Assembly (NCBI GenBank): GCA_964616855.1
Contig: CAZTUJ010000001.1
Span: 384,301 to 448,300 of the forward strand
From: an uncultured Gammaproteobacteria bacterium
Lineage (GTDB): Bacteria > Patescibacteriota > Patescibacteriia > Patescibacteriales > UBA12465
Length of the DNA stretch: 64,000 nucleotides
Direction of reading: 5' to 3'
Shown: positions 3,854 to 39,852 of the stretch, piece by piece
Layout: every line of letters starts with the position of its first letter
Position numbering within the stretch: position 1 is the first letter of the stretch
Notes under the pieces: generated by a model
Told to the model about the DNA's origin: nothing
Database searches by the model: none
Seen by the model: the letters and a program-made list of their open reading frames with translations, nothing else
Program-made: the position numbers and the translations under genes

Positions 3854-4624
3854 ATGGGAAAAATCATTGCCGTTGTCAATCAAAAAGGGGGTGTGGGTAA
3901 GACCACAACCACCGTCAATTTAGGAGCTTATCTGGCTGAAGCCGGCAAGGAGGTCTTGCTGGTTGATTTAGATCCGCAAGCTAATGCTACTTCGGGCTTA
4001 GGTATTGAGCATCAGAAATTAGAAGCCGGCGTCTATGAGGCTCTCTTAGGGCAAAAACCGCTCTATTCTGTGATTAAGCGTACCGTTCAGCCTCGCTACA
4101 GCGTAGCCCCGGCCACAGTGGCCTTAGCGGGCGCAGGAATTGAGATGGTGGCTTTAGAAAACCGGGAATTTCGCTTAGCTTTGATGTTGGAAGAATTGCG
4201 TTCCGAATATGATTATATTATCGTTGACGGCCCTCCATCTTTAGGCTTGCTTACCGTTAACAGTCTAGTAGCCGCTGATGAAGTCTTAATTCCCATCCAA
4301 AGTGAATATTATGCCTTAGAAGGCCTGGGACAATTATTAGAAACAGTACAGCTAGTACGAGATAATCTCAAACCGTCTTTAAATATCATGGGCGCGGTGG
4401 TGACAATGTTTGACCGCCGCAATAAACTATCCGGGGCTGTTTTAGAAGAATTGAAGAAATTTTTTCCGGGTAAAATTTTTGATTCGGTCATTCCTAGAAG
4501 TGTAAAATTAGCGGAGGCTCCTAGTTATGGTCGCAGTATTCTCCATTATGATCCTAAGTCTAATGGGGCTAAGGCTTATGAAAGTTTAGCTCAAGAGGTG
4601 ATAGCTCTAGAAAAGGGTGTTTAG
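3854..4624 (+). CDS. parA: Chromosome partitioning ATPase ParA/Soj
   Basis: It has the deviant Walker A motif KGGVGKTT. I chose the ATG at 3854 (MGKIIAVVNQKGG) because the track's 3695 start would overlap tRNA-Leu and the promoters. Confidence 0.9.
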   Translation: MGKIIAVVNQKGGVGKTTTTVNLGAYLAEAGKEVLLVDLDPQANATSGLGIEHQKLEAGVYEALLGQKPLYSVIKRTVQPRYSVAPATVALAGAGIEMVALENREFRLALMLEELRSEYDYIIVDGPPSLGLLTVNSLVAADEVLIPIQSEYYALEGLGQLLETVQLVRDNLKPSLNIMGAVVTMFDRRNKLSGAVLEELKKFFPGKIFDSVIPRSVKLAEAPSYGRSILHYDPKSNGAKAYESLAQEVIALEKGV

Positions 4625-4626
4625 TT

Positions 4627-5232
4627 ATGAAAGATATTCTTATTGCCACTGCTAATCGCGGTAAAGCTCGGGAAATTGAAGTTATTTTTCAAGGCTCTTC
4701 TTTTCGTCCGCATTTTTTGTATGAATACCCAGATTTACAGAAGATTAACATTCAGGAAAACGCCCAGAGTTTTGAGGGTAATGCTTTAATTAAAGCCTTG
4801 TTAATCGGTCAGGCTTCCGGCATGATTACTTTAGCCGATGATAGCGGCATCTGCGTTGAGGCTTTAGAAGGGGCGCCAGGAGTACTCTCAGCTCGTTATT
4901 CGGAAGAAAGAACGGATGCAGCTAATAATCAAAAGTTGTTATTGGCTTTAGCCGGAATACCAACAGAAAAGCGTAATTGCCATTATCATTGCAGTGTGGC
5001 GATTTATAATCCCCTTGATAATTTTGTGGCTACTACCGTTGGCGTTTGGCAGGGAAGAGTGGCGGAGAAAGAGAGTGGTGACCGCAGTTTTGGTTACGCC
5101 CCGATTTTTTTGGCTGCAGAATTTAATTACGAAAAAAGTAATGCCGAGTGCGACCCGGAAGAGTTAACCGCTATCAATCACCGGGGCAGGGCTTTCCGGG
5201 GGGCTTTAGAAATTTTGCAAGAAAAATATTAA
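4627..5232 (+). CDS. rdgB: Non-canonical purine NTP pyrophosphatase (RdgB/HAM1 family)
   Basis: 201 aa. ATANRGKAREI, DDSGICVEAL and GAPGV...SARY motifs fit the family. Confidence 0.85.
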   Translation: MKDILIATANRGKAREIEVIFQGSSFRPHFLYEYPDLQKINIQENAQSFEGNALIKALLIGQASGMITLADDSGICVEALEGAPGVLSARYSEERTDAANNQKLLLALAGIPTEKRNCHYHCSVAIYNPLDNFVATTVGVWQGRVAEKESGDRSFGYAPIFLAAEFNYEKSNAECDPEELTAINHRGRAFRGALEILQEKY

Positions 5233-24793: not shown

Positions 24794-26308
24794 ATGTCTG
24801 CAGAAAAGAACTTGGCACCGGGTAGCGAAAGGGAAGAGCGTTTGAAAAAACTGCTGGCCTTGCGAGAAGCAGGTATTAATCCCTATCCGGCGACGAGTAA
24901 ACGTAATTATAGTATTGCCCAGGTTTTGGCGGATTTTGATAAATTGGCCGAAAAGCAAAGTGTAGTTACTATTGCTGGTCGTTTGCGTAGTTTACGTAGC
25001 CACGGTAATCTCAGTTTTGCTGCCCTAGAAGATGCTAGTGGTCAATTGCAGTTGGCTTTTTCTAAAAAAGAACTCGGTGATGAGAGCTATAAGCGCTTTT
25101 TGAAATTAATTGATACGGGTGACTTTATTGAAGCCACTGGCTTAGCTTTCTTGACCCATCGTGGCGAGAAGAGTTTAATGTTGTCTGCTTGGCAGATTCT
25201 TAGTAAAGCAATTGCGCCCATTCCGGATGCCTGGTATGGCCTTAAAGATGAAGATGAGCGCTACCGCCGCCGCTACTTAGATATTTTACTTAATCCGGAA
25301 ACTAGAGACTTATTCTATAAAAAAGCCCTATTTTGGGAAGTAACCAGGGACTTTTTAAAGCGCCATGGTTTTTTTGAAGTCGAAACTCCAACTTTAGAAA
25401 CTAGCACCGGCGGAGCCGAGGCTAACCCTTTCCGCACTCACCATGATGATTTTGATTTAGATGTCTTTCTGCGCATCTCTGTGGGTGAGTTGTGGCAGAA
25501 ACGCTTAATGGCCGCCGGCTTTGAAAAAGTGTTTGAAATCGGCCGCGTCTATCGCAATGAAGGTTCTAGCCCCGATCATCTCCAGGAATTTACCAATATG
25601 GAGTTCTATTGGGCTTACGCTAACTATGAATTAGGGATGAAATTAGTCCAAGAACTATATCAAGAAATTGCTCTTAAAGTCTTCGCTAAGACCAAATTTA
25701 GTACTAAAGGGATGGAATATGACCTGGCGGGTGAATGGCCGCGCCTAGACTACCGCACGGCCGTCTTAGAGAATACTGGCATTGATGTCCTGACAGCCAC
25801 GGAAGCGGAAATGAAGGCAAAATTGAGTGAGTTGCAAGTGAAGTATGAAGGCGATAATCGCGAACGTTTGACCGATACTTTGTGGAAATATTGCCGCCGG
25901 AGTATTGCCGGCCCTGTTTTCTTAGTTAATCACCCTAAATTAGTTTCGCCGCTTTCCAAGGCCAAGCCAGAAAATCCCGAACTAACCGAACGTTTTCAGA
26001 TTATTATTGCCGGCAGTGAGGTGGGTAACGGTTTTTCGGAGTTAAATGACCCCGTAGACCAGCGGGAACGCTTTGAACTACAGCAGCAGTTAATTGATCG
26101 GGGCGATAAGGAAGCAATGATGCCGGACTGGGAATTTGTGGAGATGCTAGAACACGGCATGCCCCCGACCTGTGGTTTTGGCTTCGGCGAGCGTCTTTTT
26201 GCCTTTATGGTTGATAAACCGGTCAGAGAGACCACTCTTTTTCCCTTAATGAGGCCGAAAAGAGAAGCGGGTAAGGGCGGGGAAAAAGAAACCCTTGAAA
26301 AAAAATAA
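24794..26308 (+). CDS. lysS: Lysine--tRNA ligase (class II)
   Basis: 504 aa. It has an N-terminal OB anticodon-binding domain and class II motifs (FRNE-like YRNEGSSPDHLQEFT, GFGFGERL). Confidence 0.95.
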   Translation: MSAEKNLAPGSEREERLKKLLALREAGINPYPATSKRNYSIAQVLADFDKLAEKQSVVTIAGRLRSLRSHGNLSFAALEDASGQLQLAFSKKELGDESYKRFLKLIDTGDFIEATGLAFLTHRGEKSLMLSAWQILSKAIAPIPDAWYGLKDEDERYRRRYLDILLNPETRDLFYKKALFWEVTRDFLKRHGFFEVETPTLETSTGGAEANPFRTHHDDFDLDVFLRISVGELWQKRLMAAGFEKVFEIGRVYRNEGSSPDHLQEFTNMEFYWAYANYELGMKLVQELYQEIALKVFAKTKFSTKGMEYDLAGEWPRLDYRTAVLENTGIDVLTATEAEMKAKLSELQVKYEGDNRERLTDTLWKYCRRSIAGPVFLVNHPKLVSPLSKAKPENPELTERFQIIIAGSEVGNGFSELNDPVDQRERFELQQQLIDRGDKEAMMPDWEFVEMLEHGMPPTCGFGFGERLFAFMVDKPVRETTLFPLMRPKREAGKGGEKETLEKK

Positions 26309-26334
26309 TTAATTGTTATAATACCAATATCAGC

Positions 26335-26368
26335 AAAAATGGCTTTAAAGCAATGAAGCCATTTTTAT
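26335..26368 (+). terminator. Hairpin plus T-run after lysS, abutting tRNA-Gln
   Basis: AAAATGGCTT-(loop)-AAGCCATTTT followed by TAT. Confidence 0.6.
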
Positions 26369-26439
26369 TCGGGGATCGTCTAATGGTAGGACAACAGGTT
26401 CTGGTCCTGTTTATCGGGGTTCGAATCCCTGTCCCCGAG
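26369..26439 (+). tRNA. tRNA-Gln (anticodon CTG); CCA not encoded
   Basis: Hand fold: the acceptor is TCGGGGA/TCCCCGA with U1-A72, as is typical for tRNA-Gln. The anticodon stem ACAGG/CCTGT carries the loop TTCTGGT. The T-arm is CGGGG-TTCGAAT-CCCTG. Confidence 0.85.
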
Positions 26440-26586
26440 CTAAACACGAAAACAGGTTTAAAAAGCCTGTTTTCGTTTTAATATTAGATATATATTAAGT
26501 TTCAAAGCGGTTCTAACATTTTTGTGGTATTTATAGTATTTTTTAGAAAAACCTTTATTTTATTGGTCCATATTGGTTAGAATCCA
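26435..26586 (+). repeat. Direct repeat copy A (tRNA-Gln 3' end, terminator hairpin and ~100 nt of spacer)
   Basis: Hand alignment to 31574-31735 gives 49/54 identical in the first block. Overall identity is about 83% over ~152 aligned nt, with one 10-nt indel. Confidence 0.8.
26447..26480 (+). terminator. Intrinsic terminator after tRNA-Gln
   Basis: CGAAAACAGG-(9-nt loop)-CCTGTTTTCG followed by TTTT. Confidence 0.75.
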
Positions 26587-26740
26587 TTTGTCTGTTTTTT
26601 AAAAAATATTATTAAAATATTTTTAGTATTATATCATTTAGGCTGTATTATTATATTTATAGTAATTCTATTTTTTACTAAGATGAACAATTATGTTAAA
26701 ATATAAATAATAAAGTAATTAAAATGCATTTAATATAAAT

Positions 26741-29700
26741 ATGAGTAAAGTGAAAATTTATACGTCTATTTTTTTGTTGTTTAATTTTATATTTTCTGGT
26801 ATTTTATTGCCATTTAATGATGTTAGAGCCGATTCTAATAAGGTAATAACTATCACATTTGCTACAACACCGGTTTCGCCAGTTGTTAGTAAAACTCAAT
26901 TAAAATATAATAAAGATTTTGTTCTAAGTTATAGTTTTGACGATGGACTAATAAGAGGTTACGATACCGCCTTTAAATATATGAACGGTGGTTATTCTGA
27001 TTATCTTGGCCAATATTTTGGGGGGCTGTATTTTACTGATGGCGCTGGAAACAATGTACCATTTCGTGGTGGGTATGCTTTTTATGTCAGAAATGCTAGT
27101 TATTCAGATATTCACATTAATACCCCTAGCTATATAAAATGGACTCAATTGCAAGAAGCGGTTGATAGTGGTTGGAATGTATTTAATCATGGTTATACAT
27201 CGGCGTCTGTCTCCGCAGATAACCCTAATTACGTTTATTACGTCGGTGACCCGGGTGGTCATGCTACTGGTTCTTTAGACTATACTTATGAACTTACACA
27301 AGCAAATGTTGATATTGCCTCTCATATTAATTTAAAAAATAATGCTGGCACGGTAACTGGACCATTAAACGTTTCTCAAGTAATTTTACCAAATGGTGAT
27401 GATAATTATATTCAGCCAGCCTTTGATAATGGCTTTAATGCTGTTTATGCTCAAAGTGGAATCTTTCCCTTTGATGGAAGCACTACAACTGCGCCTACCT
27501 TTACGAATGTAAATAATCCAATAAGTAATAATCGTCATGTTATGCCTCGCTGGTTTGATTATGAATATAGATATTTATCAACAGGAGAATATCCTGGCGG
27601 TTTATTTAATCATGTTGATCAAGTTGCCTCATTAAGTACTAGCTCTACAAAATATTGGACTCAATCCTTTACTCATCACATTACTACTAGCACGTATCCC
27701 CCGGATTGGAACGGAGGGGTTACTTGGGATAGTTGGAAAAGCCTTATGGACCATGTTGAAAATACTTATGGTCGCTTTGGTAATGATAAAGCATGGGTAG
27801 CTGGAGCCGAAGAGGTTTATAATTACATGATGGTTAAGCAAAACTCCGTTGTGACTCAAAATTTAGTGGGGAATGTTTTAACTATAGAAATAGACACAAC
27901 CAGTGTTCCGGCTAATTTAAAAAACTACGCCTTATCTTTACTAGTAAGTTCTGACAATAATGCTGTTATAGACAGTATCAACTATGGAACTGATTTTACT
28001 TATCATAGTGACAACAAGGCAACGGGACTTATTAATATTGATTGGGGTGTAAATTCTTATTCAAAAAATGATATTACTCGCGTTGAATCATTAGTTTCTG
28101 AAGCTGAAACGAGTAAAAGGAAGTCAGATATTGATATTGCTAGGTCTTATGTTGATTTATTAACAACTAATCCAGCCTCTATAAAGACTTCATATGTTTC
28201 TAGATTAGATGCCATAGTTGTGCCACTCCGAACTTGGTATATAAATGTAAAAGGTATTACTAATCTAGTTAATTGTAATGATTATAATGGCGCGACTACT
28301 ACAAAATCTTATTCGCCATCAATCTATAATTGGAACTTATTTACCGTTGGTAACACTTCAGCTACTGCATGTGGTGACTTAAGTAATATAAGAGACTCAG
28401 ATAATCAGATATCAAATATTTCTTTATCAAATACCGCTCCTTTTAAAAATGGTGGTTTGCCAACAGCCGATACTGGAAATAATTCAGCTATATACCCTGA
28501 TGCGGTAATTGGTTCAGCGGGACAAATTTACAGTTCAGTCACAACACCAGCTAAAGTTAAAATATCTGGATTAGAGAGCATAAAAACGTATAATATTAAA
28601 TTATACGGCTATACTTCTGCTACCGGCGCCACTGGTAATAGTGCTATTACCTTATATACTATAGGCAGTACAACCAAAGAATTAATTGTAAAATCAAATA
28701 CAACAAGCACGGTTGAATTTCTAAATGTTATTCCAATTGCAGGAGAAATTGAAGTAACGGTCGCGCCCAAAGTTGCGGCTTGGGGGTATGGTTTTTTAAA
28801 TGCCTTTGAAATTAAAGAAAATATTTTAGCTGCCCCGACTAACTTATCTTACAACTCTCCTAATACCTACATAAAAAATAGTGCTATTATCCCATTATCT
28901 CCAACTGTAACTGGTTTAGGAATAACATATTCTGTTTCGCCAACACTACCATCAGGATTATCCATAAGCACTTCAACTGGTATTATTTCTGGAACACCAA
29001 CATCGGCCACCAGTTTGGCCACTTATACTGTCTCTGCGACTAATAATGGAGGCAGTACTACTTTTGGCGTTGTAATGGGAATAAATAATATCGCCCCAAA
29101 TTCGCTGTCGTACAATTCACCGAATAATTTTACAAGAAATACCTCAATTACTCCATTGTCACCAACTGTAAGCGGAGAGGAAATTACTTATTCCATTTCA
29201 CCGACACTACCAAGTGGGCTTTCTTTAGATGATTCAACCGGTATTATTTCAGGCACTCCAAGTGCAACCTCTACTCAAACTACTTATACGGTGACCGCAA
29301 CTAACTCGGGTGGTAGCACTACTTTTGATGTCGTTATTGAAGTTAACCATGCCGCCCCAACTAATTTATCCTATGCCACGCCAAATAGTTATATTAAGGA
29401 CTCCGCTATTACTCCGCTAACACCAACTATAACTGGTGCTGATTTAACTTACTCCATTTCACCGACACTACCAAGTGGGCTTTCTTTAGATGATTCAACC
29501 GGTATTATTTCAGGCACTCCAAGTGCAACCTCTACTCAAACTACTTATACGGTGACCGCAACTAACTCGGGTGGTAGCACTACTTTTGATGTCGTTATTG
29601 CTGTGGGTGATGTTATCTCTTACACACTGTCTTATCTGGCGAGTGCTAATGGTGCTATTACGGGCACAATATATCAATCAGTTGTCAGTGGTGCTAACGG

Positions 29701-30742
29701 CACTCAAGTAACCGCAACCCCTAACACCGGCTATCACTTTGTTGATTGGTCAGATGGAATATTAACTGCCGCTAGAACTGATTTAAATGTTCAAGCTAAT
29801 AAAACAGTAACTGCTAATTTTGCAATTGATGAACAAAGTAATATTTCAAATCCTCAACTTAGCCTACCAGCAGCTATTGGCAGTGGTTTAAGCGATGAAT
29901 CTATTCCAATGAACGAATCTCGTAGTATTGGTTCATTAACTAATTCTGGCACTAACATCCTAGCCTACATCAACTCTCAAGCTAATTTCCAGGCTCCAGA
30001 AAGTTCCAATGGCAATCAATTAGTAGGTCATAGTCTAACTATTTCCAACCTAAATTTAGCTACCAATATAATTACTCTTACCATCGCTTCTACTCCCCAA
30101 ATACTAACACTACAAAAAGGAGAAACGAGGCTGGTTGATATAGATGGTGATGGCATTAATGACATTGAAGTTACTTTCACGGACGTGTATGTGAACCGCG
30201 CTGAAGTAACTGTTAAAGCGCTAAATGATATTACTCCGATAATTACTTCAAGCTCAGAAAGTAACACTGAAGCAGTTACTAATGAAGAGTTAAAATTGGC
30301 TACTAAAATAAACACTAGTCTGATTAAAAAACTAGCCGGTCGTATATTACTACAGGTAGAAACCAAGGGCCAGGCCTGGTATTTAGACAAGATTTCTCTA
30401 AAAAGATATTATCTAGCTGACGGCCCTAGTGCCTATCAAGCTCTCCGTAAGTTTGGTTTAGGTATTACTAATACTGATCTAAATAAAATACCAGTAGCGC
30501 CTACTTCTGTTTTGCCAAGTGACTATGCTAAGAGTGCTAATTACTCAACCGAGCTAACTAATAGACTGTCAGGTAGAATAGTTCTTCAAGTAGAAAACCA
30601 TGGTGAAGCTTGGTACATTAATCCAGTCGATGGTTACAGATATTATCTAGCTAATGGAGGTGCTGCCTACCAGATAATGAGAAATTTGTCATTAGGAATT
30701 AACAATATTAATATTAGACAAATAAAAGTAGGAAATTGGTGA
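26741..30742 (+). CDS. Giant secreted mosaic surface protein: signal peptide, possible NodB-like region, three He_PIG-type Ig-like repeats, one Listeria-Bacteroides (InlB B-repeat-like) domain, two C-terminal ~55-aa repeats
   Basis: 1333 aa with an N-terminal signal (cleavage context VRA-DS). The FDDG motif sits in YSFDDGL. LPSGLSLDDSTGIISGTP occurs three times. GYHFVDWSDG is present, and the GRILLQVE...AWY...RYYL...AYQ module occurs twice. Confidence 0.85.
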   Translation: MSKVKIYTSIFLLFNFIFSGILLPFNDVRADSNKVITITFATTPVSPVVSKTQLKYNKDFVLSYSFDDGLIRGYDTAFKYMNGGYSDYLGQYFGGLYFTDGAGNNVPFRGGYAFYVRNASYSDIHINTPSYIKWTQLQEAVDSGWNVFNHGYTSASVSADNPNYVYYVGDPGGHATGSLDYTYELTQANVDIASHINLKNNAGTVTGPLNVSQVILPNGDDNYIQPAFDNGFNAVYAQSGIFPFDGSTTTAPTFTNVNNPISNNRHVMPRWFDYEYRYLSTGEYPGGLFNHVDQVASLSTSSTKYWTQSFTHHITTSTYPPDWNGGVTWDSWKSLMDHVENTYGRFGNDKAWVAGAEEVYNYMMVKQNSVVTQNLVGNVLTIEIDTTSVPANLKNYALSLLVSSDNNAVIDSINYGTDFTYHSDNKATGLINIDWGVNSYSKNDITRVESLVSEAETSKRKSDIDIARSYVDLLTTNPASIKTSYVSRLDAIVVPLRTWYINVKGITNLVNCNDYNGATTTKSYSPSIYNWNLFTVGNTSATACGDLSNIRDSDNQISNISLSNTAPFKNGGLPTADTGNNSAIYPDAVIGSAGQIYSSVTTPAKVKISGLESIKTYNIKLYGYTSATGATGNSAITLYTIGSTTKELIVKSNTTSTVEFLNVIPIAGEIEVTVAPKVAAWGYGFLNAFEIKENILAAPTNLSYNSPNTYIKNSAIIPLSPTVTGLGITYSVSPTLPSGLSISTSTGIISGTPTSATSLATYTVSATNNGGSTTFGVVMGINNIAPNSLSYNSPNNFTRNTSITPLSPTVSGEEITYSISPTLPSGLSLDDSTGIISGTPSATSTQTTYTVTATNSGGSTTFDVVIEVNHAAPTNLSYATPNSYIKDSAITPLTPTITGADLTYSISPTLPSGLSLDDSTGIISGTPSATSTQTTYTVTATNSGGSTTFDVVIAVGDVISYTLSYLASANGAITGTIYQSVVSGANGTQVTATPNTGYHFVDWSDGILTAARTDLNVQANKTVTANFAIDEQSNISNPQLSLPAAIGSGLSDESIPMNESRSIGSLTNSGTNILAYINSQANFQAPESSNGNQLVGHSLTISNLNLATNIITLTIASTPQILTLQKGETRLVDIDGDGINDIEVTFTDVYVNRAEVTVKALNDITPIITSSSESNTEAVTNEELKLATKINTSLIKKLAGRILLQVETKGQAWYLDKISLKRYYLADGPSAYQALRKFGLGITNTDLNKIPVAPTSVLPSDYAKSANYSTELTNRLSGRIVLQVENHGEAWYINPVDGYRYYLANGGAAYQIMRNLSLGINNINIRQIKVGNW
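29192..29339 (+). repeat. Perfect 148-bp repeat, copy 1 (copy 2 at 29453-29600)
   Basis: Compared base by base. The two copies are identical and offset by 261 nt. Confidence 0.9.
29453..29600 (+). repeat. Perfect 148-bp repeat, copy 2
   Basis: Identical to 29192-29339. Confidence 0.9.
30331..30739 (+). repeat. Two tandem C-terminal ~55-aa repeats of unassigned family (module also present at 39487-39840)
   Basis: LAGRILLQVETKGQAWYLDKISLKRYYLADGPSAYQALRKFGLGITNTDLNKIP and LSGRIVLQVENHGEAWYINPVDGYRYYLANGGAAYQIMRNLSLGINNINIRQIK. Confidence 0.8.
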
Positions 30743-30811
30743 AAAATAAGTAAATTTTAGCTATTATCAGCCATTGAAGTTCGGAAGCTGTCCATCCAAG
30801 CGAGCATATAT

Positions 30812-30840
30812 AAAATAGCCCTATTTCAGGGCTATTTTTA
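30812..30840 (+). terminator. Intrinsic terminator after the giant gene
   Basis: AAATAGCCC-TATTTCA-GGGCTATTT followed by TT. Confidence 0.8.
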
Positions 30841-30848
30841 GTAGGGAG

Positions 30849-30877
30849 TTTATAGCTTTAGAACCATATGGTATAAT
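30849..30877 (+). promoter_or_regulatory. Promoter with extended -10 (TTTATA-17-TGgTATAAT)
   Basis: Read directly from the sequence, about 45 nt upstream of the 30923 ATG. Confidence 0.55.
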
Positions 30878-30922
30878 TTTATGTAATAATAACATTATTA
30901 TTTAATTGAGTTGTTTATTTAT

Positions 30923-31507
30923 ATGGAAATTAAAGAAATTTTTGGTCTATTATCGGCCATAGTGTTATTGATAGGTGGGTTGCCATACTTAAAAGATATT
31001 TGGCAAAAGAAAATTCATCCTCATATCCTGTCCTGGCTGGGGTGGTCTTTTATTACTGCTCTTGGTGGTTCAGCAATGTTGGCCGAAGGCAGTCGTTGGG
31101 TAGTGGCATTACTTTTTGCTAATACCTTGCTCTGCTTTATTATAGCTGGAATGGCCATTGTAAAACGAGTTGGTGTTTGGAGAGCCTCTGTTTATGATCG
31201 TTTATTTTTTGCTTTAGGTATTATTGGTTTGCTTCTGTGGCAAATATCTGATTTACCGGTTATTGCCTTAATTTTTGCTATAGTGGCTGATTTTTCTTTC
31301 GGGGTTCCAACAATAATTAAAACTTATAAACACCCTGAAACCGAAACTTATTTTGCTTGGGCGGCCTCGGCTACTTCTGGTTTATTATCTCTTTTTGCCA
31401 TAGAGAGATTTAATTTTGCGGAGTTAGCCTATCCATTATATCTTTTTATTTTTGATACATTAGTATTATTGTTAGTTTTAAAGATTTTAAGAAGAAAAGT
31501 CGCTTAG
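30923..31507 (+). CDS. Six-TM membrane protein with internal 3+3 TM duplication (PQ-loop/SemiSWEET-like arrangement, tentative)
   Basis: The two halves carry similar loops after their first helix (GGLPYLKDIWQKK and FGVPTIIKTYKHP). I prefer the ATG at 30923 over the TTG at 30911. Confidence 0.5.
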   Translation: MEIKEIFGLLSAIVLLIGGLPYLKDIWQKKIHPHILSWLGWSFITALGGSAMLAEGSRWVVALLFANTLLCFIIAGMAIVKRVGVWRASVYDRLFFALGIIGLLLWQISDLPVIALIFAIVADFSFGVPTIIKTYKHPETETYFAWAASATSGLLSLFAIERFNFAELAYPLYLFIFDTLVLLLVLKILRRKVA

Positions 31508-31573
31508 TAAGGGAGAGGACTCTAAACGACTCAGCGTTATTTATTCAAAACCGTTCCAACTATATCCCAAACT

Positions 31574-31735
31574 CCGAGCCAAACATGAAAACAGGTTTTA
31601 AAAGCCTATTTTTGTTTTAATATTAGACACATTTTAAGTTCCAAAGTGGTTCTAACTATTTTATGATATTTGAGATAATTTATAGTAATCTTTAGAAAAG
31701 TCCCGATTTTATTGGTTTATATTGGTTCGAACCAA
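31574..31735 (+). repeat. Direct repeat copy B (degenerate tRNA-Gln 3' end, weakened hairpin and spacer)
   Basis: Aligns to 26435-26586. Upstream, GTTCCAACTATATCCC resembles the tRNA T-arm GGTTCGAATCCC. Confidence 0.8.
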
Positions 31736-31736
31736 T
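31721..31736. promoter_or_regulatory. Perfect 16-bp palindrome ATTGGTTCGAACCAAT (candidate operator)
   Basis: It lies immediately upstream of the -35 position of the tfoX-like gene promoter. The copy A counterpart is degenerate (ATTGGTTAGAATCCAT). Confidence 0.5.
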
Positions 31737-31740
31737 GTTC

Positions 31741-31769
31741 CTTTATTCGAAGTTAAGATATGGTATACT
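31741..31769 (+). promoter_or_regulatory. Promoter with extended -10 (TGgTATACT)
   Basis: TGGTATACT sits at 31761-31769, about 18 nt upstream of the 31787 ATG. The -35 is weak. Confidence 0.5.
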
Positions 31770-31786
31770 TAAGTAAATATTAAAAT

Positions 31787-32119
31787 ATGGCGAGCAAACA
31801 AATTGTAGTTGATTATATTATTGATCAGTTATTATCTCTTGGTAACGTAAGAGTCAGAAAAATGTTTGGCGAGTATGCTTTATATTGCAATGATAAGGTT
31901 GTGGCTTTGATTTGCAATAATAGATTGTTCGTTAAAATTACAGCTGAAGGCAAAAAATTTGTAGGTGGCGAATATTTAGAAGGCTACGCCTACAAAGGCG
32001 CAAAAGCATCAATTTTAATAGATGAGGATAAAATAGATGATTCTGATTGGCTCAGTGAGTTAATTAAAATTACGGCCTATAATTTACCAGTTTCAAAAAT
32101 AATGAAAAATACTAAATAA
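31787..32119 (+). CDS. TfoX N-terminal domain-containing protein
   Basis: 110 aa. VRKMFGEYALYCNDKVVALICNNRLFVK matches the TfoX_N pattern (MFGG.glY.dg..fa.i.dd.LyLK). Confidence 0.75.
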   Translation: MASKQIVVDYIIDQLLSLGNVRVRKMFGEYALYCNDKVVALICNNRLFVKITAEGKKFVGGEYLEGYAYKGAKASILIDEDKIDDSDWLSELIKITAYNLPVSKIMKNTK

Positions 32120-32122
32120 GAT

Positions 32123-32389
32123 ATGAAACATAAACTAATCAAAATTGCAGCGAGTTTAATGATTATATTAATTTTTAGTATTTTCTGGCTATTGAAATTT
32201 ATAAAATACGGCGCTAGCAACTGTGATACAAATGGAAAATCATGTGATTGTTTTTGTTGTAATTCATTCGGCTTACGAGGGTATGAATCTTGCGGAAATT
32301 ACGGATTTATTGTTGGAGTTGGTATTGGTCTGGTAGCCATGTTAATTATATATTTATTTTTAAAAAATATTAATAAATCAAAAAAATAA
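32123..32389 (+). CDS. Small two-TM protein with Cys-rich loop
   Basis: 88 aa. The loop between the helices reads NCDTNGKSCDCFCCNSFG. Confidence 0.5.
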   Translation: MKHKLIKIAASLMIILIFSIFWLLKFIKYGASNCDTNGKSCDCFCCNSFGLRGYESCGNYGFIVGVGIGLVAMLIIYLFLKNINKSKK

Positions 32390-32421
32390 AAAATAATTTT
32401 AATAATTTATATAATAAAATT

Positions 32422-33204
32422 ATGAAAAAAATGCTTATAAAAATTTTTACCGGATTTGTCTATATTGCCATGGTGGTGGTAAATTTTTTGGCCAACGGTT
32501 TGCCCCTTAATAACCGTTCTACTGGAGCCATCTCAGATGCCTATCCAAATCTATTTGCTCCTGCCGGCGCAGCCTTTTCTATTTGGGGTTTGATTTATTT
32601 GTTGCTTGGCGCTTATGTACTCTACCAATTTGTAAACAAGGATCAAAAAATAGATGCTCTAATAAAAAAAATTAATCCATTTTTCATTACTTCTTCACTA
32701 GCTAATATAGCCTGGATATTCACCTGGCACTACGATTACATTGGCTTTTCGGTAATTATTATGGCGGCATTACTTTTTTTTCTTATCAAAATTGCCGACA
32801 TTATTCGTGTGCAAAAATTTTCTTTACAAGAAAAACTCTTTATTTGGACCCCTTTTAGTGTTTATTTTGGTTGGATTACCGTAGCGACGATTGCCAACAT
32901 TACTGTATTTTTAGTGAGTATTGGCTGGAAGGGATTTGGCATTGCTGATTTTATCTGGACAAGTATTATTTTGCTTGTTGGCACATTAATTGGAATTTGG
33001 CGCATGCAAAAAGACAAAAATATTGTCTACGCATTAGTGCTTGTCTGGGCGTATTCTTGGATACTTTTTAAACACTTATCTTTGGGAGGATTTGGTGGGC
33101 AATATCCTTTGATTATTGCCACCGTGATAGCGTGCTTAATTTTATTTGTGTTATTTATTGAAAAAATTACCAAATATCGGATCAAAATGAAATTAAAAAA
33201 ATAA
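32422..33204 (+). CDS. Polytopic Trp-rich membrane protein, TspO/MBR-related (tentative)
   Basis: 260 aa with about 7 TM segments. PNLFAPAGAAFSIWGLIY and many Trp residues recall TspO-related families, from memory only. Confidence 0.4.
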   Translation: MKKMLIKIFTGFVYIAMVVVNFLANGLPLNNRSTGAISDAYPNLFAPAGAAFSIWGLIYLLLGAYVLYQFVNKDQKIDALIKKINPFFITSSLANIAWIFTWHYDYIGFSVIIMAALLFFLIKIADIIRVQKFSLQEKLFIWTPFSVYFGWITVATIANITVFLVSIGWKGFGIADFIWTSIILLVGTLIGIWRMQKDKNIVYALVLVWAYSWILFKHLSLGGFGGQYPLIIATVIACLILFVLFIEKITKYRIKMKLKK

Positions 33205-33214
33205 TATAAATTTT

Positions 33215-33922
33215 ATGAAAAAAACAGCAGAACAAGCTTTAGCGGAAATATTTGATGAATATAAAAATCAGGGGCTTATTTCTTTGTATTTATACGGATC
33301 AATTTTAACAAGCGATTATATTGAGGGTGAAAGCGATATTGATTCGATTGGTTTTGCCTCTGAAGATATGGCTCTATCCCTTGAAAATGAGATAAAGAAT
33401 AAGCTATGTGAAAAAACTGATTTTGATAAATTTGGTTTTAGGCTTTTATATAAATCAGAATTAGATACTGGCATCATTAAAGGCAATCTCGCTAGCTTTA
33501 TCCACCCTCAATTACTGCTTCTCGACCTACCTCATTGGAAGCACGTAGTAGGGAAAGACTTTTCAAGATCAGATTTCTCACTAGCTGATATTAATACGGC
33601 GGGAGCCGTAAAAATTAGATTAGAGCATCTGGTAAAAATTGAGGATGGTTCATATAAGACAGCTCCTGGAAATAGCCATGTTTTATTTTTAAAGGTATTA
33701 GCTCGAATCATCTTTCATTTACAGGGCGAGCGCGGTTGCAAAGAACCTTTTTCATATAGTTCAGTATTTTCTCATGCCAACGAAGAAGAAAAACCGGTAG
33801 CGCAAGCAATATTAGATTGTAAGAAGAGTAAATGGAGTAAATCAGTATTTGTAGAAAATGAGGCTATCTATAAAAATTTTATTAATGCCTTAAATAGTCG
33901 CTATCGTGAGCGACTTGGATAA
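33215..33922 (+). CDS. Nucleotidyltransferase-domain protein, AadA/ANT-like architecture
   Basis: LYLYGS...ESDIDSIGF is the polbeta-type NTase G[GS]-x(n)-DxD motif. It is followed by a helical C-terminal domain, as in aminoglycoside adenylyltransferases. Confidence 0.6.
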   Translation: MKKTAEQALAEIFDEYKNQGLISLYLYGSILTSDYIEGESDIDSIGFASEDMALSLENEIKNKLCEKTDFDKFGFRLLYKSELDTGIIKGNLASFIHPQLLLLDLPHWKHVVGKDFSRSDFSLADINTAGAVKIRLEHLVKIEDGSYKTAPGNSHVLFLKVLARIIFHLQGERGCKEPFSYSSVFSHANEEEKPVAQAILDCKKSKWSKSVFVENEAIYKNFINALNSRYRERLG

Positions 33923-33963
33923 TCATCTAAAAGGTTTTTACTCTTACTTCTGACTAAATTATT

Positions 33964-33991
33964 AAATAGACTAATTTTAGTCTATTTTTTG
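33964..33991 (+). terminator. Intrinsic terminator
   Basis: AAATAGAC-TAATTTTA-GTCTATTT followed by TTT. Confidence 0.65.
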
Positions 33992-33999
33992 TTATATTA

Positions 34000-34028
34000 T
34001 TGACAAAATAATGATAATATATTATATT
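34000..34028 (+). promoter_or_regulatory. Near-consensus sigma70 promoter (TTGACA-17-TATATT)
   Basis: Read directly from the sequence. It drives the 34113 gene through a leader of about 80 nt. Confidence 0.7.
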
Positions 34029-34051
34029 TTGGCATACCGTTCCTTAAAAAA

Positions 34052-34099
34052 TTTATTGGTTTTCAGAGAAGATTTAGATCTTTTGTGAAAACCAATAAA
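34052..34099 (+). promoter_or_regulatory. 48-nt leader hairpin in the 5' UTR of the 34113 gene
   Basis: Perfect 14-bp outer stem TTTATTGGTTTTCA/TGAAAACCAATAAA with inner AAGAT/ATCTT pairing. It ends 13 nt before the ATG. Confidence 0.6.
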
Positions 34100-34112
34100 A
34101 CTATAAAGCGAA

Positions 34113-34682
34113 ATGGAAATAAATATTCTGTATAAAGCGGAGTCATTAGATGACTTTTCTTTGCAACTCAAAAAGGTGATCCAGTATTTTGATGCTAAAA
34201 TCTTCAAGAAACCGGCTAAAGTAAGCATCCGAGAGGGCAAATTTTTTCTGGGAAAGGGCGCAGCTGCTTCCTCAACTAAGAAATGGCTCTTCAGACTTCT
34301 GGGGATGCCAGATGATTACTTCATATTTAGAGAGGGTAAGCATTTGGAAGATTTAAGCAAGTTAGAGTTTGGAGCTATTTGTTGCGGCATGCACGAAGTT
34401 AGGCACAGATTTCAGCACTATAACAATAGATGCTTAATCAGTCCGGCTTTTGCTAGGAAAAACACCAAATATTTTTCCAAAAAGATGGTTGATTATCTTT
34501 ATGAAAGCACCTATTCAAGGTATGGTAAAGATAAAAAAACCTTCGAAAGAGAATTTGACGCCTATCTTCTTGAATCAATCGTATCTTTAAATTGTAAGAA
34601 TTATAAAATGACAACAGAAGTTGTCACGGAATTAATAACTTGCAATCAGGAGAATATTGAGTCAATTATGCTAAAGATTTGA
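34113..34682 (+). CDS. Hypothetical protein with HExxH motif (possible zinc metallopeptidase)
   Basis: 189 aa. CGMHEVRHRFQH contains HEVRH. No family was recognised. Confidence 0.45.
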   Translation: MEINILYKAESLDDFSLQLKKVIQYFDAKIFKKPAKVSIREGKFFLGKGAAASSTKKWLFRLLGMPDDYFIFREGKHLEDLSKLEFGAICCGMHEVRHRFQHYNNRCLISPAFARKNTKYFSKKMVDYLYESTYSRYGKDKKTFEREFDAYLLESIVSLNCKNYKMTTEVVTELITCNQENIESIMLKI

Positions 34683-34701
34683 TAATTCTTTGATCATTCT
34701 C

Positions 34702-34729
34702 AAAAAAGCCGTTACCCAACGGTTTTTTT
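34702..34729 (+). terminator. Intrinsic terminator
   Basis: AAAAAAGCCGTT-ACCC-AACGGTTTTTTT. Confidence 0.75.
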
Positions 34730-34739
34730 ATTTATAAAT

Positions 34740-35031
34740 ACCCCTTAATAAGCTTAAATTGGCTCTTAGTTCGGGGCCAGATTAGGGGGCTTATAATCAT
34801 TGTTTGTAACAATATCACCCAAGGCACGGCAGGATAATTATGAGCGTTTTATGCGGCGGCCGCAGAGGCTACCTTATAAAATGCTCACGAAAAATATACT
34901 CTCGACATTAGAAAATAAATAATGTTACCAGAGTTTATTGCTTACGAGTGCAGACGCCTCGTTCCCACCGAGACGTCTGCACATCCTTGTAGGCATTAAT
35001 TTGGAAAAACTAATTTATTAATATAAATAAT
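34740..35031 (+). ncRNA. Candidate structured RNA / regulatory leader (unassigned)
   Basis: About 290 nt with no ORF over 25 aa on either strand. GC is locally higher than in neighbouring spacers. Several stems were found by hand: 34841-34850/34878-34887 (10 bp), ATTGTT/AACAAT, and a 13-bp stem at 34948-34982. Confidence 0.3.
34948..34982. promoter_or_regulatory. Strong GC-rich inverted repeat, no U-run on either strand
   Basis: GTGCAGACGcCTCG-TTCCCAC-CGAGaCGTCTGCAC, 50 nt upstream of the cupin gene ATG. Confidence 0.55.
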
Positions 35032-35436
35032 ATGAAAGGATTTAGCGCCAACATCGAAAAAGCGACTTTAGAAAATAATAATTTTCGTAAAGTTTTATAC
35101 ACGGCTAAACACAGCCAACTAGTATTAATGTGTCTTTTACCAAAAGAGGAAATTGGAATGGAGGTGCACGAGGACACTGATCAATTTTTCCGTTTTGAAA
35201 AAGGGCAGGGAAAATGTATTATTGATGATAGTGAATATATCGTTGGCGATAGATCGGGTGTAATTGTGCCCGCCGGCGCCAAACATAACATTATTAATAC
35301 TTCAAATTCAGAGAGTTTAAAGCTTTATACAATCTACTCCCCGGCTCACCATAAGGATGGAGTTGTCCATTCAACCAAACAAGAGGCCGACAAGGAGCAG
35401 AAAGAAGAAAAATTCGACGGAAAAACCACGGAATAA
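35032..35436 (+). CDS. Cupin domain-containing protein
   Basis: 134 aa. GMEVHEDTDQFFRFEKGQG...VPAGAKHNIINTS are cupin motifs 1 and 2. Confidence 0.8.
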   Translation: MKGFSANIEKATLENNNFRKVLYTAKHSQLVLMCLLPKEEIGMEVHEDTDQFFRFEKGQGKCIIDDSEYIVGDRSGVIVPAGAKHNIINTSNSESLKLYTIYSPAHHKDGVVHSTKQEADKEQKEEKFDGKTTE

Positions 35437-35470
35437 GCAGAGTGATTAATATTTTAAATTTAAGTTTAAT

Positions 35471-35500
35471 AAAAAGAAGGGGTAAAACCCCTTCTTTTTA
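35471..35500 (+). terminator. Intrinsic terminator
   Basis: AAAAAGAAGGGG-TAAAA-CCCCTTCTTTTT. Confidence 0.85.
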
Positions 35501-35626
35501 GGTATTAGTAATAATTTTTAAACAAGGATTGAGATCAGAGAGAGGGTACTATTTTTCAGTAAATAGACAAAAATGGCATTTTTATGCTATTTTTTATATA
35601 TATTTGATTATAATTAAATTAGTAAT

Positions 35627-36370
35627 ATGAAAAAACTATTAATCTTAACCCTAATTTTATCTCTTTCTTCTTTATCAGCTTGTAGTTTAAATAAGAATAA
35701 CGGGGTGGAAGAAAAATCTGGACAAATAAATCAGCCTAATATTGTTGGCGCTGATCGTGATGAGCATGGTTGTATCGCTTCAGCGGGCTATAGCTGGTGC
35801 GAAATAAAACAAAAATGTCTTAGAATTTGGGAGGAAAAATGTGAAGAGGGCGGACTTGAAGTTAATGAAAGTGTATCTTCTGAAAAACTAGGCATCAAAG
35901 TTTCATATTATTCAAGTACTGAAAATAAAACTGGGTCAAAAGTAGAAGATAATCGTATTTACTTTTATATGAACGGGTCGGTAAATGTTAGTGACTATAA
36001 ATCCGGTCAATATTTAGAAGGATTTACTAAAGAGACTAACTTGAGCCTCCAAAGTGCTATTGAGAATAATTTTCTAAAAAATATAGCTAAAGATAAATGT
36101 TTTGTAGAAATTATTGAAGATACTCCTGATTATCAAAAAGCCATTATTAATTATCCTGACGCCCCTTGTTCAGACGGTAGTCCTGCCTTTACTTGCAATA
36201 CTTGCCCGGCTGGATATAGTCGAACTAATGGTATTTCTTACTTTATGCATTATAAAAGTCACCCCAATTCCTATTTTTATTTTAGTATTGGCCAGTATTC
36301 TTTAATAATGGGCGACCCTCAAGCAACGAGCAGCTTAGAATGGTTTAATAATATAGAATTTCTCAAGTAG
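35627..36370 (+). CDS. Lipoprotein, function unknown
   Basis: Signal peptide with a lipobox LSAC. 247 aa and Cys-rich. Confidence 0.65.
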   Translation: MKKLLILTLILSLSSLSACSLNKNNGVEEKSGQINQPNIVGADRDEHGCIASAGYSWCEIKQKCLRIWEEKCEEGGLEVNESVSSEKLGIKVSYYSSTENKTGSKVEDNRIYFYMNGSVNVSDYKSGQYLEGFTKETNLSLQSAIENNFLKNIAKDKCFVEIIEDTPDYQKAIINYPDAPCSDGSPAFTCNTCPAGYSRTNGISYFMHYKSHPNSYFYFSIGQYSLIMGDPQATSSLEWFNNIEFLK

Positions 36371-36392
36371 ATTTTTTAAATTGTAAATATTT

Positions 36393-37292
36393 ATGCCCAA
36401 AATAATTGTTTTTGGAGCCACGCTAGATGATAGTCAAAAAAAGCGTTTAGAGGCTTTAGCTGAAGTTATTTATTTTCCTAGTCCAAATAATCCAGAGGAA
36501 TTGATAAAACAGGCGGAAGGAGCCGATGTTTTATTTAGTAATGGCGCTTTCCTTTTAGATAGTCTACCGGCCTTAAATAATATTTTTGTGAGCTATCCCT
36601 ATATCGAACTAGGAGTTTTTAATTCGGAAGATTTAAAAAAGAAGGGCGTCATTGTCGCTAACGCCCAGGGTGGCAATCGCCCCTCTATCATTGAATGGGT
36701 AATGTTTATGACCTTGGAGCTATTTAGAAAGTTTTCTCATCTTATCAGAGTAAAAGAAAATATGCCTTTACAGCTTCAAGAGAGTCTTGACGGTAAAAAA
36801 GTTTTAATTGTAGGCAAGGGAAGTATCGGCACAAAAATTGCCATTGCTTGTCAGGTTTTTGGCATGGAAGTAGATTTTTTTGAAAGAGGTGATGACTTAA
36901 TAGCTAAAGCTGCTAAAGTCGACCTTATCATTAACTCCCTTAATTGCAACTCTTCAAGCAAAAATCTTTTAAATAAAGACTTCTTTCTCTCCCTTAAGCC
37001 AGGATCATGCTTTATATCTTTTGTCCGCCAGTATACCTATGATTTAGACGGTTTAATAGAATCTATAAACAAAGGGGTTGTGGCTGGTGCGGCCATTGAC
37101 TGTGATCCGGAGAAATTTGGCGATACAGATAATGAATTTTATCAAAAAGCTTTAAGCAATAACCATATATTAGTTACACCTCATATCGCCTGGTCCACCA
37201 GACAGGCACTTGCTAATGGCGTTGAGATTGCGGTACAGAATATTGAAGCCTTTCTAAATGGTCGTCCGCAAAATATATTAACGAAGAAATAA
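36393..37292 (+). CDS. D-isomer-specific 2-hydroxyacid dehydrogenase family protein
   Basis: Rossmann motif VLIVGKGSIGTKIA. The C-terminal TPHIAWST contains the catalytic His context. Confidence 0.85.
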   Translation: MPKIIVFGATLDDSQKKRLEALAEVIYFPSPNNPEELIKQAEGADVLFSNGAFLLDSLPALNNIFVSYPYIELGVFNSEDLKKKGVIVANAQGGNRPSIIEWVMFMTLELFRKFSHLIRVKENMPLQLQESLDGKKVLIVGKGSIGTKIAIACQVFGMEVDFFERGDDLIAKAAKVDLIINSLNCNSSSKNLLNKDFFLSLKPGSCFISFVRQYTYDLDGLIESINKGVVAGAAIDCDPEKFGDTDNEFYQKALSNNHILVTPHIAWSTRQALANGVEIAVQNIEAFLNGRPQNILTKK

Positions 37293-38130: not shown

Positions 38131-39852
38131 ATGAAAATCAAAAAAATTTATTATTTATTTCCAATGCTAGTAATATTAGTACTTCCTTTTTTTTCAAAAG
38201 TACATGCAGCTCAATTTGATACTGAATCAAAAATTCTCTATAATATCCCGTCCGATATTAGAACTTCAATTGTTATGCCATTTTTTTCTAATGATGGAGA
38301 GCAATTTGCTTTTGTAAAAAATTATATCAATGCCACTAGTTCAGTAATTTTTAATGGAAAAGAGGTGTACGATAACTATAAAAAAGTAGGTTTAATTCCT
38401 AAATTTAGCCCAGATGGCACAAAATTTGCCTATGTCGTTACTTATAATGATAATCGACCAAACGCCTCAAGCTCTCATCTAATACTAAATGGTCAGGATT
38501 ATCAGAGCTATAAATCAATAGAATCAGATTCGTTAATATTTAGCGCTGATAGCCAGCATTATGCTTTTACAGCCTCCGCTGATGGAAAAATGTTTATTGT
38601 TGTCGATAAGCAAGAAAATAATAAGTATGATGAGGTCTCATATCCTAATATAAGTTTTGATGGAAAAAGGCTAGCCTATAGCGCAAAAAATGATATTGAT
38701 ATTGGAAAATCGTTAATAATTGATGGCAAAATTTGGGGGAAATATGTTGACGTAAAATATCCAATTGTTTTTAGCGCTGATGGTTCACATGTAGCTTATG
38801 CTGCTAGTAACGGTAGCTGGTCTTTGTTTGTTGATGATAAAGAAGTCTCCTCTGGGTATGACAATATCACAAATATTTGGGTCGGAAATTCTGGAAAATA
38901 TGCCTTTATTGGTGTAAGGGGAACAGAATATAAAGCAAATATAAATGGTGAGGAGAGCCAGTCATACTCTATGGCCTCTGGTTTAATCATTAGCTACGAT
39001 GAAAAGCGTTCAATTTTTGCCGCTCGTAGAGGCAACAACGAATTTGCTGTAATTGATGGCAAGGAAGGAATTTCATATCCTATTTTTATAACTGGATCAA
39101 TTCCAAATTTTAGTCCCGACAGCAAACACGTGGTTTATAAAACTAGCCGGTTCTCTTCTGATGGGATGAAAAGACTATTTTTCTTGGTGGCCGATGGTCA
39201 AGAGATTGGTGTTAACGGTTGGTATTTTAACGGTTTTGATTTGGGTAACGGTCAACATACTGAGTTTTATTTTTCAAAAAATAGCCGTTATTTGATTTAT
39301 AATTCTTTGGTAAATAAAAATCAAATTGTTAGGAATCAAATTGATTTAGTAGGAAAAGATGATGTGCCCGTTGTCACTCAAGACGTAAAGGTAAATTCGT
39401 CGATAAAATCTGAAGATAAGAATATATCAACAAGTGGCGCCATTATTAAGCCAACATCTCCCGCTAAACTTGACCCAATTGCTAATCGCCTAAAGGGCAT
39501 GATACTTTTACAAGTTGAAGATAAGGGTCAGGCTTGGTATGTAAATCCTAAAGATGGCAGAAGATATTATTTGGCGGATGGTAATTCTGCATATCAAGTT
39601 ATGAAAAATTTGGGAATTGGTATAAATAATAAGGATTTAGATAAAATTAAAACAAGCGCTGATTTTAGAAAAAAATTTATTGGTAAAATATTTTTACAAG
39701 TAGAATCTCACGGAGAGGCTTATTATATTAGTCAAAATGGTAGGTATAATTATCTGAAAGATGGTGCGGCGGCTTATTCGGTTATGAGAAATTTTGGCAT
39801 CGGCGTCACAAACAGTGACTTGAATAAAATATCACTGGGTGAACAAAATTAA
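38131..39852 (+). CDS. Secreted TolB/WD40-like beta-propeller repeat protein with two C-terminal ~55-aa repeats
   Basis: Signal peptide (VHA-AQ). FSPDG/FSADG/SFDGK blades recur. The C-terminus carries LKGMILLQVEDKGQAWYVNPKDGRRYYLADGNSAYQVMKNLGIGINNKDLDKIK and a second copy. Confidence 0.75.
   Translation: MKIKKIYYLFPMLVILVLPFFSKVHAAQFDTESKILYNIPSDIRTSIVMPFFSNDGEQFAFVKNYINATSSVIFNGKEVYDNYKKVGLIPKFSPDGTKFAYVVTYNDNRPNASSSHLILNGQDYQSYKSIESDSLIFSADSQHYAFTASADGKMFIVVDKQENNKYDEVSYPNISFDGKRLAYSAKNDIDIGKSLIIDGKIWGKYVDVKYPIVFSADGSHVAYAASNGSWSLFVDDKEVSSGYDNITNIWVGNSGKYAFIGVRGTEYKANINGEESQSYSMASGLIISYDEKRSIFAARRGNNEFAVIDGKEGISYPIFITGSIPNFSPDSKHVVYKTSRFSSDGMKRLFFLVADGQEIGVNGWYFNGFDLGNGQHTEFYFSKNSRYLIYNSLVNKNQIVRNQIDLVGKDDVPVVTQDVKVNSSIKSEDKNISTSGAIIKPTSPAKLDPIANRLKGMILLQVEDKGQAWYVNPKDGRRYYLADGNSAYQVMKNLGIGINNKDLDKIKTSADFRKKFIGKIFLQVESHGEAYYISQNGRYNYLKDGAAAYSVMRNFGIGVTNSDLNKISLGEQN
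39487..39840 (+). repeat. Two tandem C-terminal ~55-aa repeats, same family as 30331-30739
   Basis: Protein-level alignment by eye. More than 20 positions are conserved across all four copies. Confidence 0.8.

Follow-up and report, generated by a model that had tools for sequence, protein, structure and literature searches.

A paired module at the C-termini of two secreted proteins belongs to a large unnamed extracytoplasmic family of Patescibacteria and may hold its carriers on the cell surface

In this work we have analysed a stretch of 64,000 nucleotides (contig CAZTUJ010000001.1, positions 384,301 to 448,300 of the forward strand; hereafter the window) in which two genes encode secreted proteins that end in the same duplicated module. 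We call them protein 1 and protein 2. An earlier note, made from the letters of the sequence, had claimed that each C-terminus consists of two copies of one module, whereas the rest of the two proteins is unrelated. We found these four copies (Table 1) in ranges which agree with those given before (30331-30739 and 39487-39840, against 30317-30739 and 39478-39849 here). The module is ~60 aa long, 17 of its columns are invariant over the four copies, and pairwise identity to the first copy is 45-53%. The C-terminal regions of the two proteins match each other in BLASTP at E = 8e-39, with single-copy cross-matches at 7e-26 and 1e-18, while the remaining 1186 aa of protein 1 and 445 aa of protein 2 have no similarity to each other (best E = 2.8), just as the note had it. 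A fifth copy was not found in the six-frame translation of the window with a four-copy profile (next match E = 1.6). At the DNA level the four copies are only 58-62% identical, and we therefore regard them as old duplications kept by selection on the protein and not as recent repeats or assembly artefacts.

Table 1. The two carrier genes and their parts, in positions of the window
Feature	Position	Strand	Residues	Description
Protein 1 gene, secreted	26741..30742	+	1333 aa	open reading frame (ORF); ~700-aa N-terminal region without family match, three He_PIG, one Flg_new_2, C-terminal tandem module
Putative Sec signal peptide, protein 1	26741..26830	+	1-30	MSKVKIYTSIFLLFNFIFSGILLPFNDVRA, then D; basic N-terminus, hydrophobic core, VRA site; read from the sequence, cleavage site inferred
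Module copy 1a	30317..30499	+	1193-1253	first-position subtype; 113.7 bits with the hidden Markov model (HMM)
Linker 1a-1b	30500..30550	+	17 aa	PTSVLPSDYAKSANYST; without the calcium-binding TSP3 motif; linker type conserved in relatives
Module copy 1b	30551..30739	+	1271-1333	second-position subtype, reaching the C-terminus of protein 1; HMM 115.9 bits
Protein 2 gene, secreted	38131..39852	+	573 aa	ORF; PD40/TolB-like beta-propeller passenger (Pfam PD40, 3.8e-08), then C-terminal tandem module
Putative Sec signal peptide, protein 2	38131..38208	+	1-26	MKIKKIYYLFPMLVILVLPFFSKVHA, then AQF; read from the sequence, cleavage site inferred
Module copy 2a	39478..39657	+	450-509	first-position subtype; HMM 120.6 bits; in the AlphaFold tandem model
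Module copy 2b	39664..39849	+	512-573	second-position subtype; GEAYY, b2-b3 loop one residue shorter; HMM 112.0 bits; in the AlphaFold tandem model

Both proteins open with the order expected of an export signal, a basic stretch followed by a hydrophobic one and an AxA-like site, in a heuristic reading. In protein 1 Pfam recognizes the immunoglobulin (Ig)-like He_PIG repeats (6.5e-27) and Flg_new_2 (3.3e-12) and leaves the last 140 aa unmatched. Its two module copies are separated by the linker listed in Table 1; only one or two residues lie between those of protein 2. Full-length orthologues of protein 1 are present in three of the genome loci collected below (L001, L003 and L008), and a look-up with its exact product returned no record.

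How widespread is this module? HMMER was run exhaustively against 1.84 billion representative proteins (50% identity) and retrieved 3,604 of them at E < 1e-3, 3,267 at E < 1e-10 and 2,262 at E < 1e-30, and the family is thus both large and sharply bounded. The consensus proposed earlier from four copies was essentially right; over ~300 modules it becomes l..rLkG.IlLQVE..GEAWYvnP.dgkryYl.dG..AY..mR.lgLGItN.dL.KIpvg. All four copies of the window carry the signature G.I.LQVE..GEAWY....(D)G.RYY...G..AY..MR..GLGI.N.D...I and score 112-121 bits with the profile. A pattern scan of 185,579 species genomes gave at least 513 confirmed loci. The suspicion that the module is specific to a lineage was borne out: wherever the title of a matching genome names a lineage, it is one of the Patescibacteria, namely Candidatus Falkow-, Komeili-, Buchanan-, Uhr- or Magasanikbacteria, "Parcubacteria" and also Jacksonbacteria. 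We take these lineages to belong to the class ABY1 of GTDB. Modules from different candidate phyla share 54-63% identity. The four copies therefore belong to a large unnamed extracytoplasmic family of Patescibacteria, the candidate phyla radiation (CPR).

About 30 of 80 loci are titled "uncultured Gammaproteobacteria bacterium" (among them L001, L006, L009, L011 and L019; binchicken/SRP co-assembly sets of third-party annotation). One of these, L001, holds an orthologue of protein 1 with 83% DNA identity and 86-87% protein identity, and for this reason we regard such titles as unreliable. Probably they are generic or mistaken, and it is likely that this DNA comes from Patescibacteria.

The number of copies is nearly constant. 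Exactly two were present in 149 of the 150 top representatives, a share which is inflated since two copies score higher than one, and the genome loci, a less biased sample, had two in 82 of 86 carrier ORFs. When each of 302 modules was compared with its nearest relative in another protein, the position (first or second) agreed in 295 cases, so the two copies are distinct subtypes. The same is true of each copy in the window: the closest relatives of 1a are first-position copies of other proteins (up to 89% identity), and those of 1b are second-position copies (up to 83%). Hence the description of the module as a tandem duplication stood as far as the two copies are concerned, but it is not a generic repeat; it is a fixed pair. 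Similarly, the pair is C-terminal in both window proteins, as had been noticed, but this does not apply to the whole family, in which 20-26% of carriers have it N-terminally behind the signal peptide. Among the top 150 representatives the pair is C-terminal in 116, next to the signal peptide in 30 and internal in 4; for 73 complete carrier ORFs the figures are 54 C-terminal and 19 N-terminal. The extreme C-terminus is therefore not obligatory for the pair (30 of 150 and 19 of 73), as it is for the C-terminal domain of the type IX secretion system (T9SS CTD), for LPXTG and for PEP-CTERM. Use at either terminus is the pattern of SLH, CWB2 and LysM anchors and not of sorting signals.

The note had also supposed that the carriers are exported, and several observations agree with this. 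Of the 73 complete carriers 68 had a hydrophobic N-terminus, whereas for the control ORFs of these loci it was 78 of 209, as judged by a hydrophobicity heuristic and not by a dedicated signal-peptide predictor. In N-terminal carriers only a few residues separate the module from an AxA-type cleavage site. C-terminal carriers stop no more than 15 aa past the module, which leaves no LPXTG motif or membrane anchor behind it. The partner domains of 97 relatives are all of extracytoplasmic types and comprise Ig-like domains (Pur_ac_phosph_N, fn3, CARDB, TIG, Kre9_KNH), peptidases (Trypsin_2, Trypsin, S8, Mx1), LVIVD and a single PG_binding_1.

Relatives differ in what connects the two copies. An acidic linker of ~60 aa with two DxDxDGxxDxxE motifs was present in 91 of the 150 top representatives, and in 58 of the 97 relatives Pfam called it TSP3_bac (calcium-binding, PF18884), a repeat typical of envelope-associated proteins. 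Neither window protein has it; with linkers of 17 aa and 1-2 aa they are part of a short-linker minority. The linker of one relative reaches Dockerin_1 (2.4e-4) and that of two others EF-hand_6, and possibly the linker has its own function. In one subfamily (P0187, P0197, P0007 and P0009) there is a conserved cysteine in the linker (for example ...SVCASNS...) and a second one in the b2-b3 loop of the second-position module (for example ...DPSKCRRIYMKDG...). Such a pair of cysteines is suggestive of a disulfide bond and agrees with an extracytoplasmic location.

The pair is exchanged between genes as a unit. A clear case is a 1,473-aa protein of another locus (L002, 5-4426), whose passenger is 23% identical to protein 1 while its tandem, linker included, is the same at 84% identity; the DNA of this locus is 81% identical to the window over 30329-30732 only. 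By eye, the passenger of this protein contains SBBP-like and BNR-like propeller repeats. When the orthologues of protein 1 were compared, conservation of the module was on a par with that of the globular N-terminal region and higher than that of the Ig and spacer parts. We had considered that the module might change more slowly than its passenger, but this holds for the Ig and spacer parts only and not for the N-terminal region.

We then asked whether the module corresponds to a named family or a known fold. That it lies outside the named families, as the note had suspected, was confirmed for Pfam-A (2025 copy) and NCBIfam, in which neither the whole proteins nor the isolated tandems had a match to the module at E <= 1 and only scattered matches far below threshold appeared. 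Database proteins made of the module alone have "-" in the precomputed Pfam field and the title "hypothetical protein". The profile found nothing real among PDB sequences, the tandem model had no significant Foldseek match in PDB or BFVD, and a description of the module was not found in the searchable literature. The note had named two outcomes that would speak against its proposal, a confident match to a characterised family and a predominance of cytoplasmic carriers; no characterised family maps onto the module and the carriers are not mostly cytoplasmic.

Some candidates were tried and set aside. With a deeper profile the PDB entry 6xi1 ("Flagellin hook IN motif family") appeared at E = 0.003, a score which is the sum of four identical repeat matches of 3.8 bits. 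The tandem of protein 2 matched phrog_12883, of unknown function, at E = 3.6e-7, but only 1 of 69 single modules reached E <= 0.001, and this marginal match was not used. The best Foldseek matches, the EccB repeats (E = 0.085, probability 0.08-0.11, template modelling (TM) score ~0.2, root-mean-square deviation ~20 A) and three-strand-plus-helix folds of the lambda-integrase type (E = 0.58), were non-significant, and the module profile retrieved no EccB sequences at E <= 10. Homology to PlyCB, a protein of Streptococcus phage C1, was rejected at the sequence level (hhalign probability 0.4%).

The structure of the tandem of protein 2 (126 aa) was predicted by AlphaFold2 from a 38-sequence alignment, with a mean predicted local distance difference test (pLDDT) of 89.8 and a predicted TM score (pTM) of 0.80. 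In this model each module is predicted to consist of a short helix, three strands (ILLQ, AWYV and RYYL) forming a three-stranded antiparallel beta-meander, an 11-residue helix, a short strand (IGI) and a final helix. A single module, modelled with a deeper alignment, reached a pLDDT of only 68 and a pTM of 0.49 and lost the short strand. Since the tandem is modelled so much better than the single module, the prediction suggests mutual stabilisation of the two modules, in which the invariant GLGI strands may take part, and the pair probably packs into one compact pseudo-dimer. Possibly this is a new fold. As a matter of speculation, Q, E, W and Y, which are conserved in the three strands, would be well suited to binding glycan.

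What could such a pair do for so many unrelated exported proteins? In a proposal to which we give about even chances, it would be a pseudo-dimeric module without catalytic activity, by which Sec-exported proteins are kept on the envelope of the cell which produces them. The carrier would be exported by Sec and its signal peptide removed, after which the pair would bind, non-covalently, a conserved part of the producer's Gram-positive-like envelope, be it peptidoglycan, a secondary wall glycopolymer or an S-layer. Proteases, Ig-like adhesin arrays, beta-propellers and other passengers would in this way be held on the surface instead of diffusing away, much as SLH and CWB2 triplets retain proteins in Firmicutes. 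The envelopes of CPR bacteria have been inferred to be Gram-positive-like (PMC6744442), and because of this, exoproteins released by such cells would need a device for retention. On the side of observation stand the membership of one family, the near-restriction to exported proteins, the fixed pair, its shuffling as a unit and the absence of a match to a named family or known fold. The conservation of the module across phyla and among orthologues fits a conserved ligand, with which it is compatible, though it is no proof of one.

Several points weigh against retention on the producer. Binding and the nature of the ligand are things that we infer from architecture, by analogy with other systems. 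The view of the pair as a folding unit comes from AlphaFold confidence values only, and both the two-copy count and the export census have the limits mentioned beside them. Wall-binding modules are classically carried by peptidoglycan hydrolases, and these have no prominent place among the partner domains here. Conservation of the module in orthologues does not surpass that of the N-terminal passenger. A fold relative with known wall binding did not emerge from Foldseek, where the best matches were non-significant, nor did the hhalign comparison give any profile similarity to PlyCB. The gene neighbourhood is likewise uninformative, with no conserved partner or operon logic, and the module is the only functional link between the two genes.

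Could the pair instead recognize a surface other than the producer's own? As an adhesion or targeting module for the envelope of a host or partner cell, or for an environmental polymer, it would deliver proteases and adhesin arrays there. CPR bacteria are widely inferred to be episymbionts with enriched gene families tied to cell-cell interaction (PMC6744442). Among the passengers are Ig-like arrays, proteases and propellers, as one typically finds them in adhesins and attack factors, and the aromatic and acidic residues that are conserved (W, Y, Y, Y, Q, E) would be suited to carbohydrates of whatever surface. We nevertheless consider it unlikely, since modules for host recognition usually diversify, while this one stays 54-63% identical across phyla whose hosts are presumably different. 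Moreover, with the signal peptide cleaved and no other anchor, most carriers would have no link to the producer, and glycoside hydrolases, the usual partners of carbohydrate-binding modules, are nearly absent. The fixed copy number of two, the position-specific subtypes and the apparent mutual stabilisation could also be those of a protein-protein docking module which, like dockerin with cohesin, attaches to a common scaffold (an S-layer protein, a pilus or a surface complex) and does not bind glycan at all. The linker of most relatives contains two DxDxDG calcium loops, with the Dockerin_1 and EF-hand_6 matches described above, and the secreted proteins that are made of a single module (P0222, P0252 and P0016) could act as adaptors or competitors. 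Yet no candidate partner family or conserved neighbouring gene was identified, and docking cannot depend on the calcium linker because both window proteins are without it. Exposed beta-sheets rich in aromatic residues would also be more typical of glycan binders, and altogether docking seems to us distinctly unlikely.

The position of the pair, at the extreme C-terminus in ~75% of carriers, and its restriction to one lineage while being common to many otherwise unrelated exported proteins, are what a sorting or secretion signal would show, recognized and perhaps removed by a dedicated machine as in the T9SS CTD, LPXTG/sortase and PEP-CTERM/exosortase systems. It is the same position which disfavours this explanation: 20-26% of carriers have the pair N-terminally, next to an ordinary Sec signal peptide, and in a few it is internal. 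Stand-alone module proteins exist, phage-encoded proteins use a single N-terminal copy, and the predicted structure is a folded globular unit of 2 x 60 aa with no hydrophobic or charged tail at the terminus, so that a sorting signal appears very improbable. That the resemblance between the two window proteins is due to chance, low-complexity sequence or an assembly artefact can be put practically at nil and was already refuted by the E value of 8e-39, the thousands of homologues, the DNA identity of ~60% and the presence of an identical protein 2 sequence in the JGI/IMG metagenome 3300059473 and in the Logan assembly of SRR12261223.

Single copies of the module are found in two settings, the stand-alone secreted proteins just named and viruses. 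Five viral contigs of IMG/VR (L082-L086) encode proteins in which a signal peptide and one N-terminal module precede either a trypsin-like protease or an unknown domain. On L082 (5903-6940) a Pro-rich linker leads from the module to the trypsin-like protease, and on L084 (5929-6723) such a linker leads to the unknown domain. The genomes of INPHARED phages gave no tblastn match for the module. L084 also encodes GroES- and GroEL-like proteins at 3202-5283. On the minus strand of L082, at 3650-5180, a papain-like cysteine peptidase (320 aa; 3928..4890) lies between two small proteins with a single transmembrane segment, an arrangement with the look of a lysis cassette. To the eye, the C-terminus of this peptidase (KLKGKYILRAEGAGEVYKVLDDGTLEYL...) is similar to the beginning of the module, yet with a score of no more than 7.8 bits (E ~0.06) we treat it as a lead only.

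A bolder idea, to which we give a low probability, is that the pair is a universal surface-display anchor with a new fold, belonging to one large clade of Patescibacteria (ABY1-type) and binding a polymer unique to them, or else a device by which symbionts attach effectors to host cells; phages would have captured single copies to put their own proteases on the same surface. If the anchor is indeed universal, a single profile would define the entire anchored surface proteome of the clade. Mobile modules for surface retention or binding are a kind of thing already known, and what is new is this unnamed family. The CPR/Patescibacteria make up a large share of bacterial diversity and almost all of them are uncultured; how they build their surface and make contact with other cells is largely unknown. 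A conserved tag of ~120 aa on thousands of exported proteins could serve as a sequence handle for drawing the surface-retained proteome from metagenomes, and ~3,600 protein clusters which are now "hypothetical" could gain a domain assignment. Perhaps the tandem, fused to green fluorescent protein, would also make a small, well-folding probe to label cells or wall polymer in environmental samples and enrichments, and the module itself is a candidate new fold for structural study.

As to the surroundings, both genes lie in a block of low GC content (26000-45000; GC 0.31-0.37 and GC at third codon positions 0.24-0.34, against 0.40-0.45 in the flanks). The block begins right after a tRNA-Gln gene (26369-26440) and holds mostly unannotated genes, many of them without a family match. 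It is possible that it is an integrated island; a repeat of this tRNA was not found elsewhere in the window. Upstream of the block, at 21635-24266, are genes for a family-2 glycosyltransferase (GT2), a DUF192 protein and a membrane protein of the Wzy_C type (O-antigen polymerase/ligase-like), followed by GreA and LysRS. The first three of these indicate that the source organism synthesizes envelope glycopolymers.

Within the carrier genes themselves, direct comparison revealed an exact 141-bp direct repeat in the He_PIG repeats of protein 1 (29198-29338 and 29459-29599, period 261 bp), listed neither by Tandem Repeats Finder nor by find_repeats. It could be a recent duplication, the outcome of gene conversion or a collapsed spot of the assembly. 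The beta-propeller part of protein 2 (38131-39465) matches NCBIfam TmcD_fam with 74.7 bits, far below the cutoff of 440, and also TolB, and these matches probably reflect a generic PD40-type repeat only. A 120-aa ORF on the minus strand (30028-30390), antisense to the end of protein 1 and partly to module 1a, has a TTG start and a hydrophobic, low-complexity product, and is most likely not a gene.

How does the pair compare with known systems of binding to the cell wall? The EccB periplasmic repeats and PlyCB are a lead and not a relationship, their Foldseek and hhalign scores being non-significant. In the choline-binding repeats (CW_binding_1), which likewise stand at the C-terminus of secreted proteins, GW..WYY..G resembles the G.AWY...G.RYY. 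of the paired module. However, these are all-beta hairpins of ~20 aa, arranged in a solenoid of 4 to more than 10, whereas the paired module has ~60 aa with three predicted helices in two copies, and a match to PF01473 was not found at E <= 1. LysM, too, is a small non-catalytic module that has been shuffled onto many secreted proteins, at either end, and it binds the glycan backbone of the wall. With ~44 aa, a b-a-a-b order, a variable copy number and flexible linkers it differs from the predicted a-b-b-b-a-b-a of the paired module, which has no match to PF01476.

The other two systems are triplets. The SLH unit has ~55-60 aa and a fixed small copy number, forms one pseudo-symmetric body and occurs at either terminus of unrelated Sec-exported proteins. 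There are three copies of it, all-helical, in contrast to the two of the paired module with their predicted mixed order, and Pfam gave no match to PF00395. The ligand of SLH is a pyruvylated secondary cell wall polymer, and the non-covalent retention of carriers on this wall polymer is the working analogy that we propose. The CWB2 triplet of the Cwp proteins of Clostridioides difficile differs as well, as its units of ~90-100 aa are alpha/beta and toprim-like and come in threes, and the paired module has no Pfam match to it. Like the paired module, it is a tandem of fixed number, forms a compact pseudo-oligomer and is used at either terminus. CWB2 anchors a family of surface proteins, proteases and adhesins included, to a wall polysaccharide specific to its lineage, and it is in this respect that we propose it as a parallel for the paired module of the Patescibacteria.

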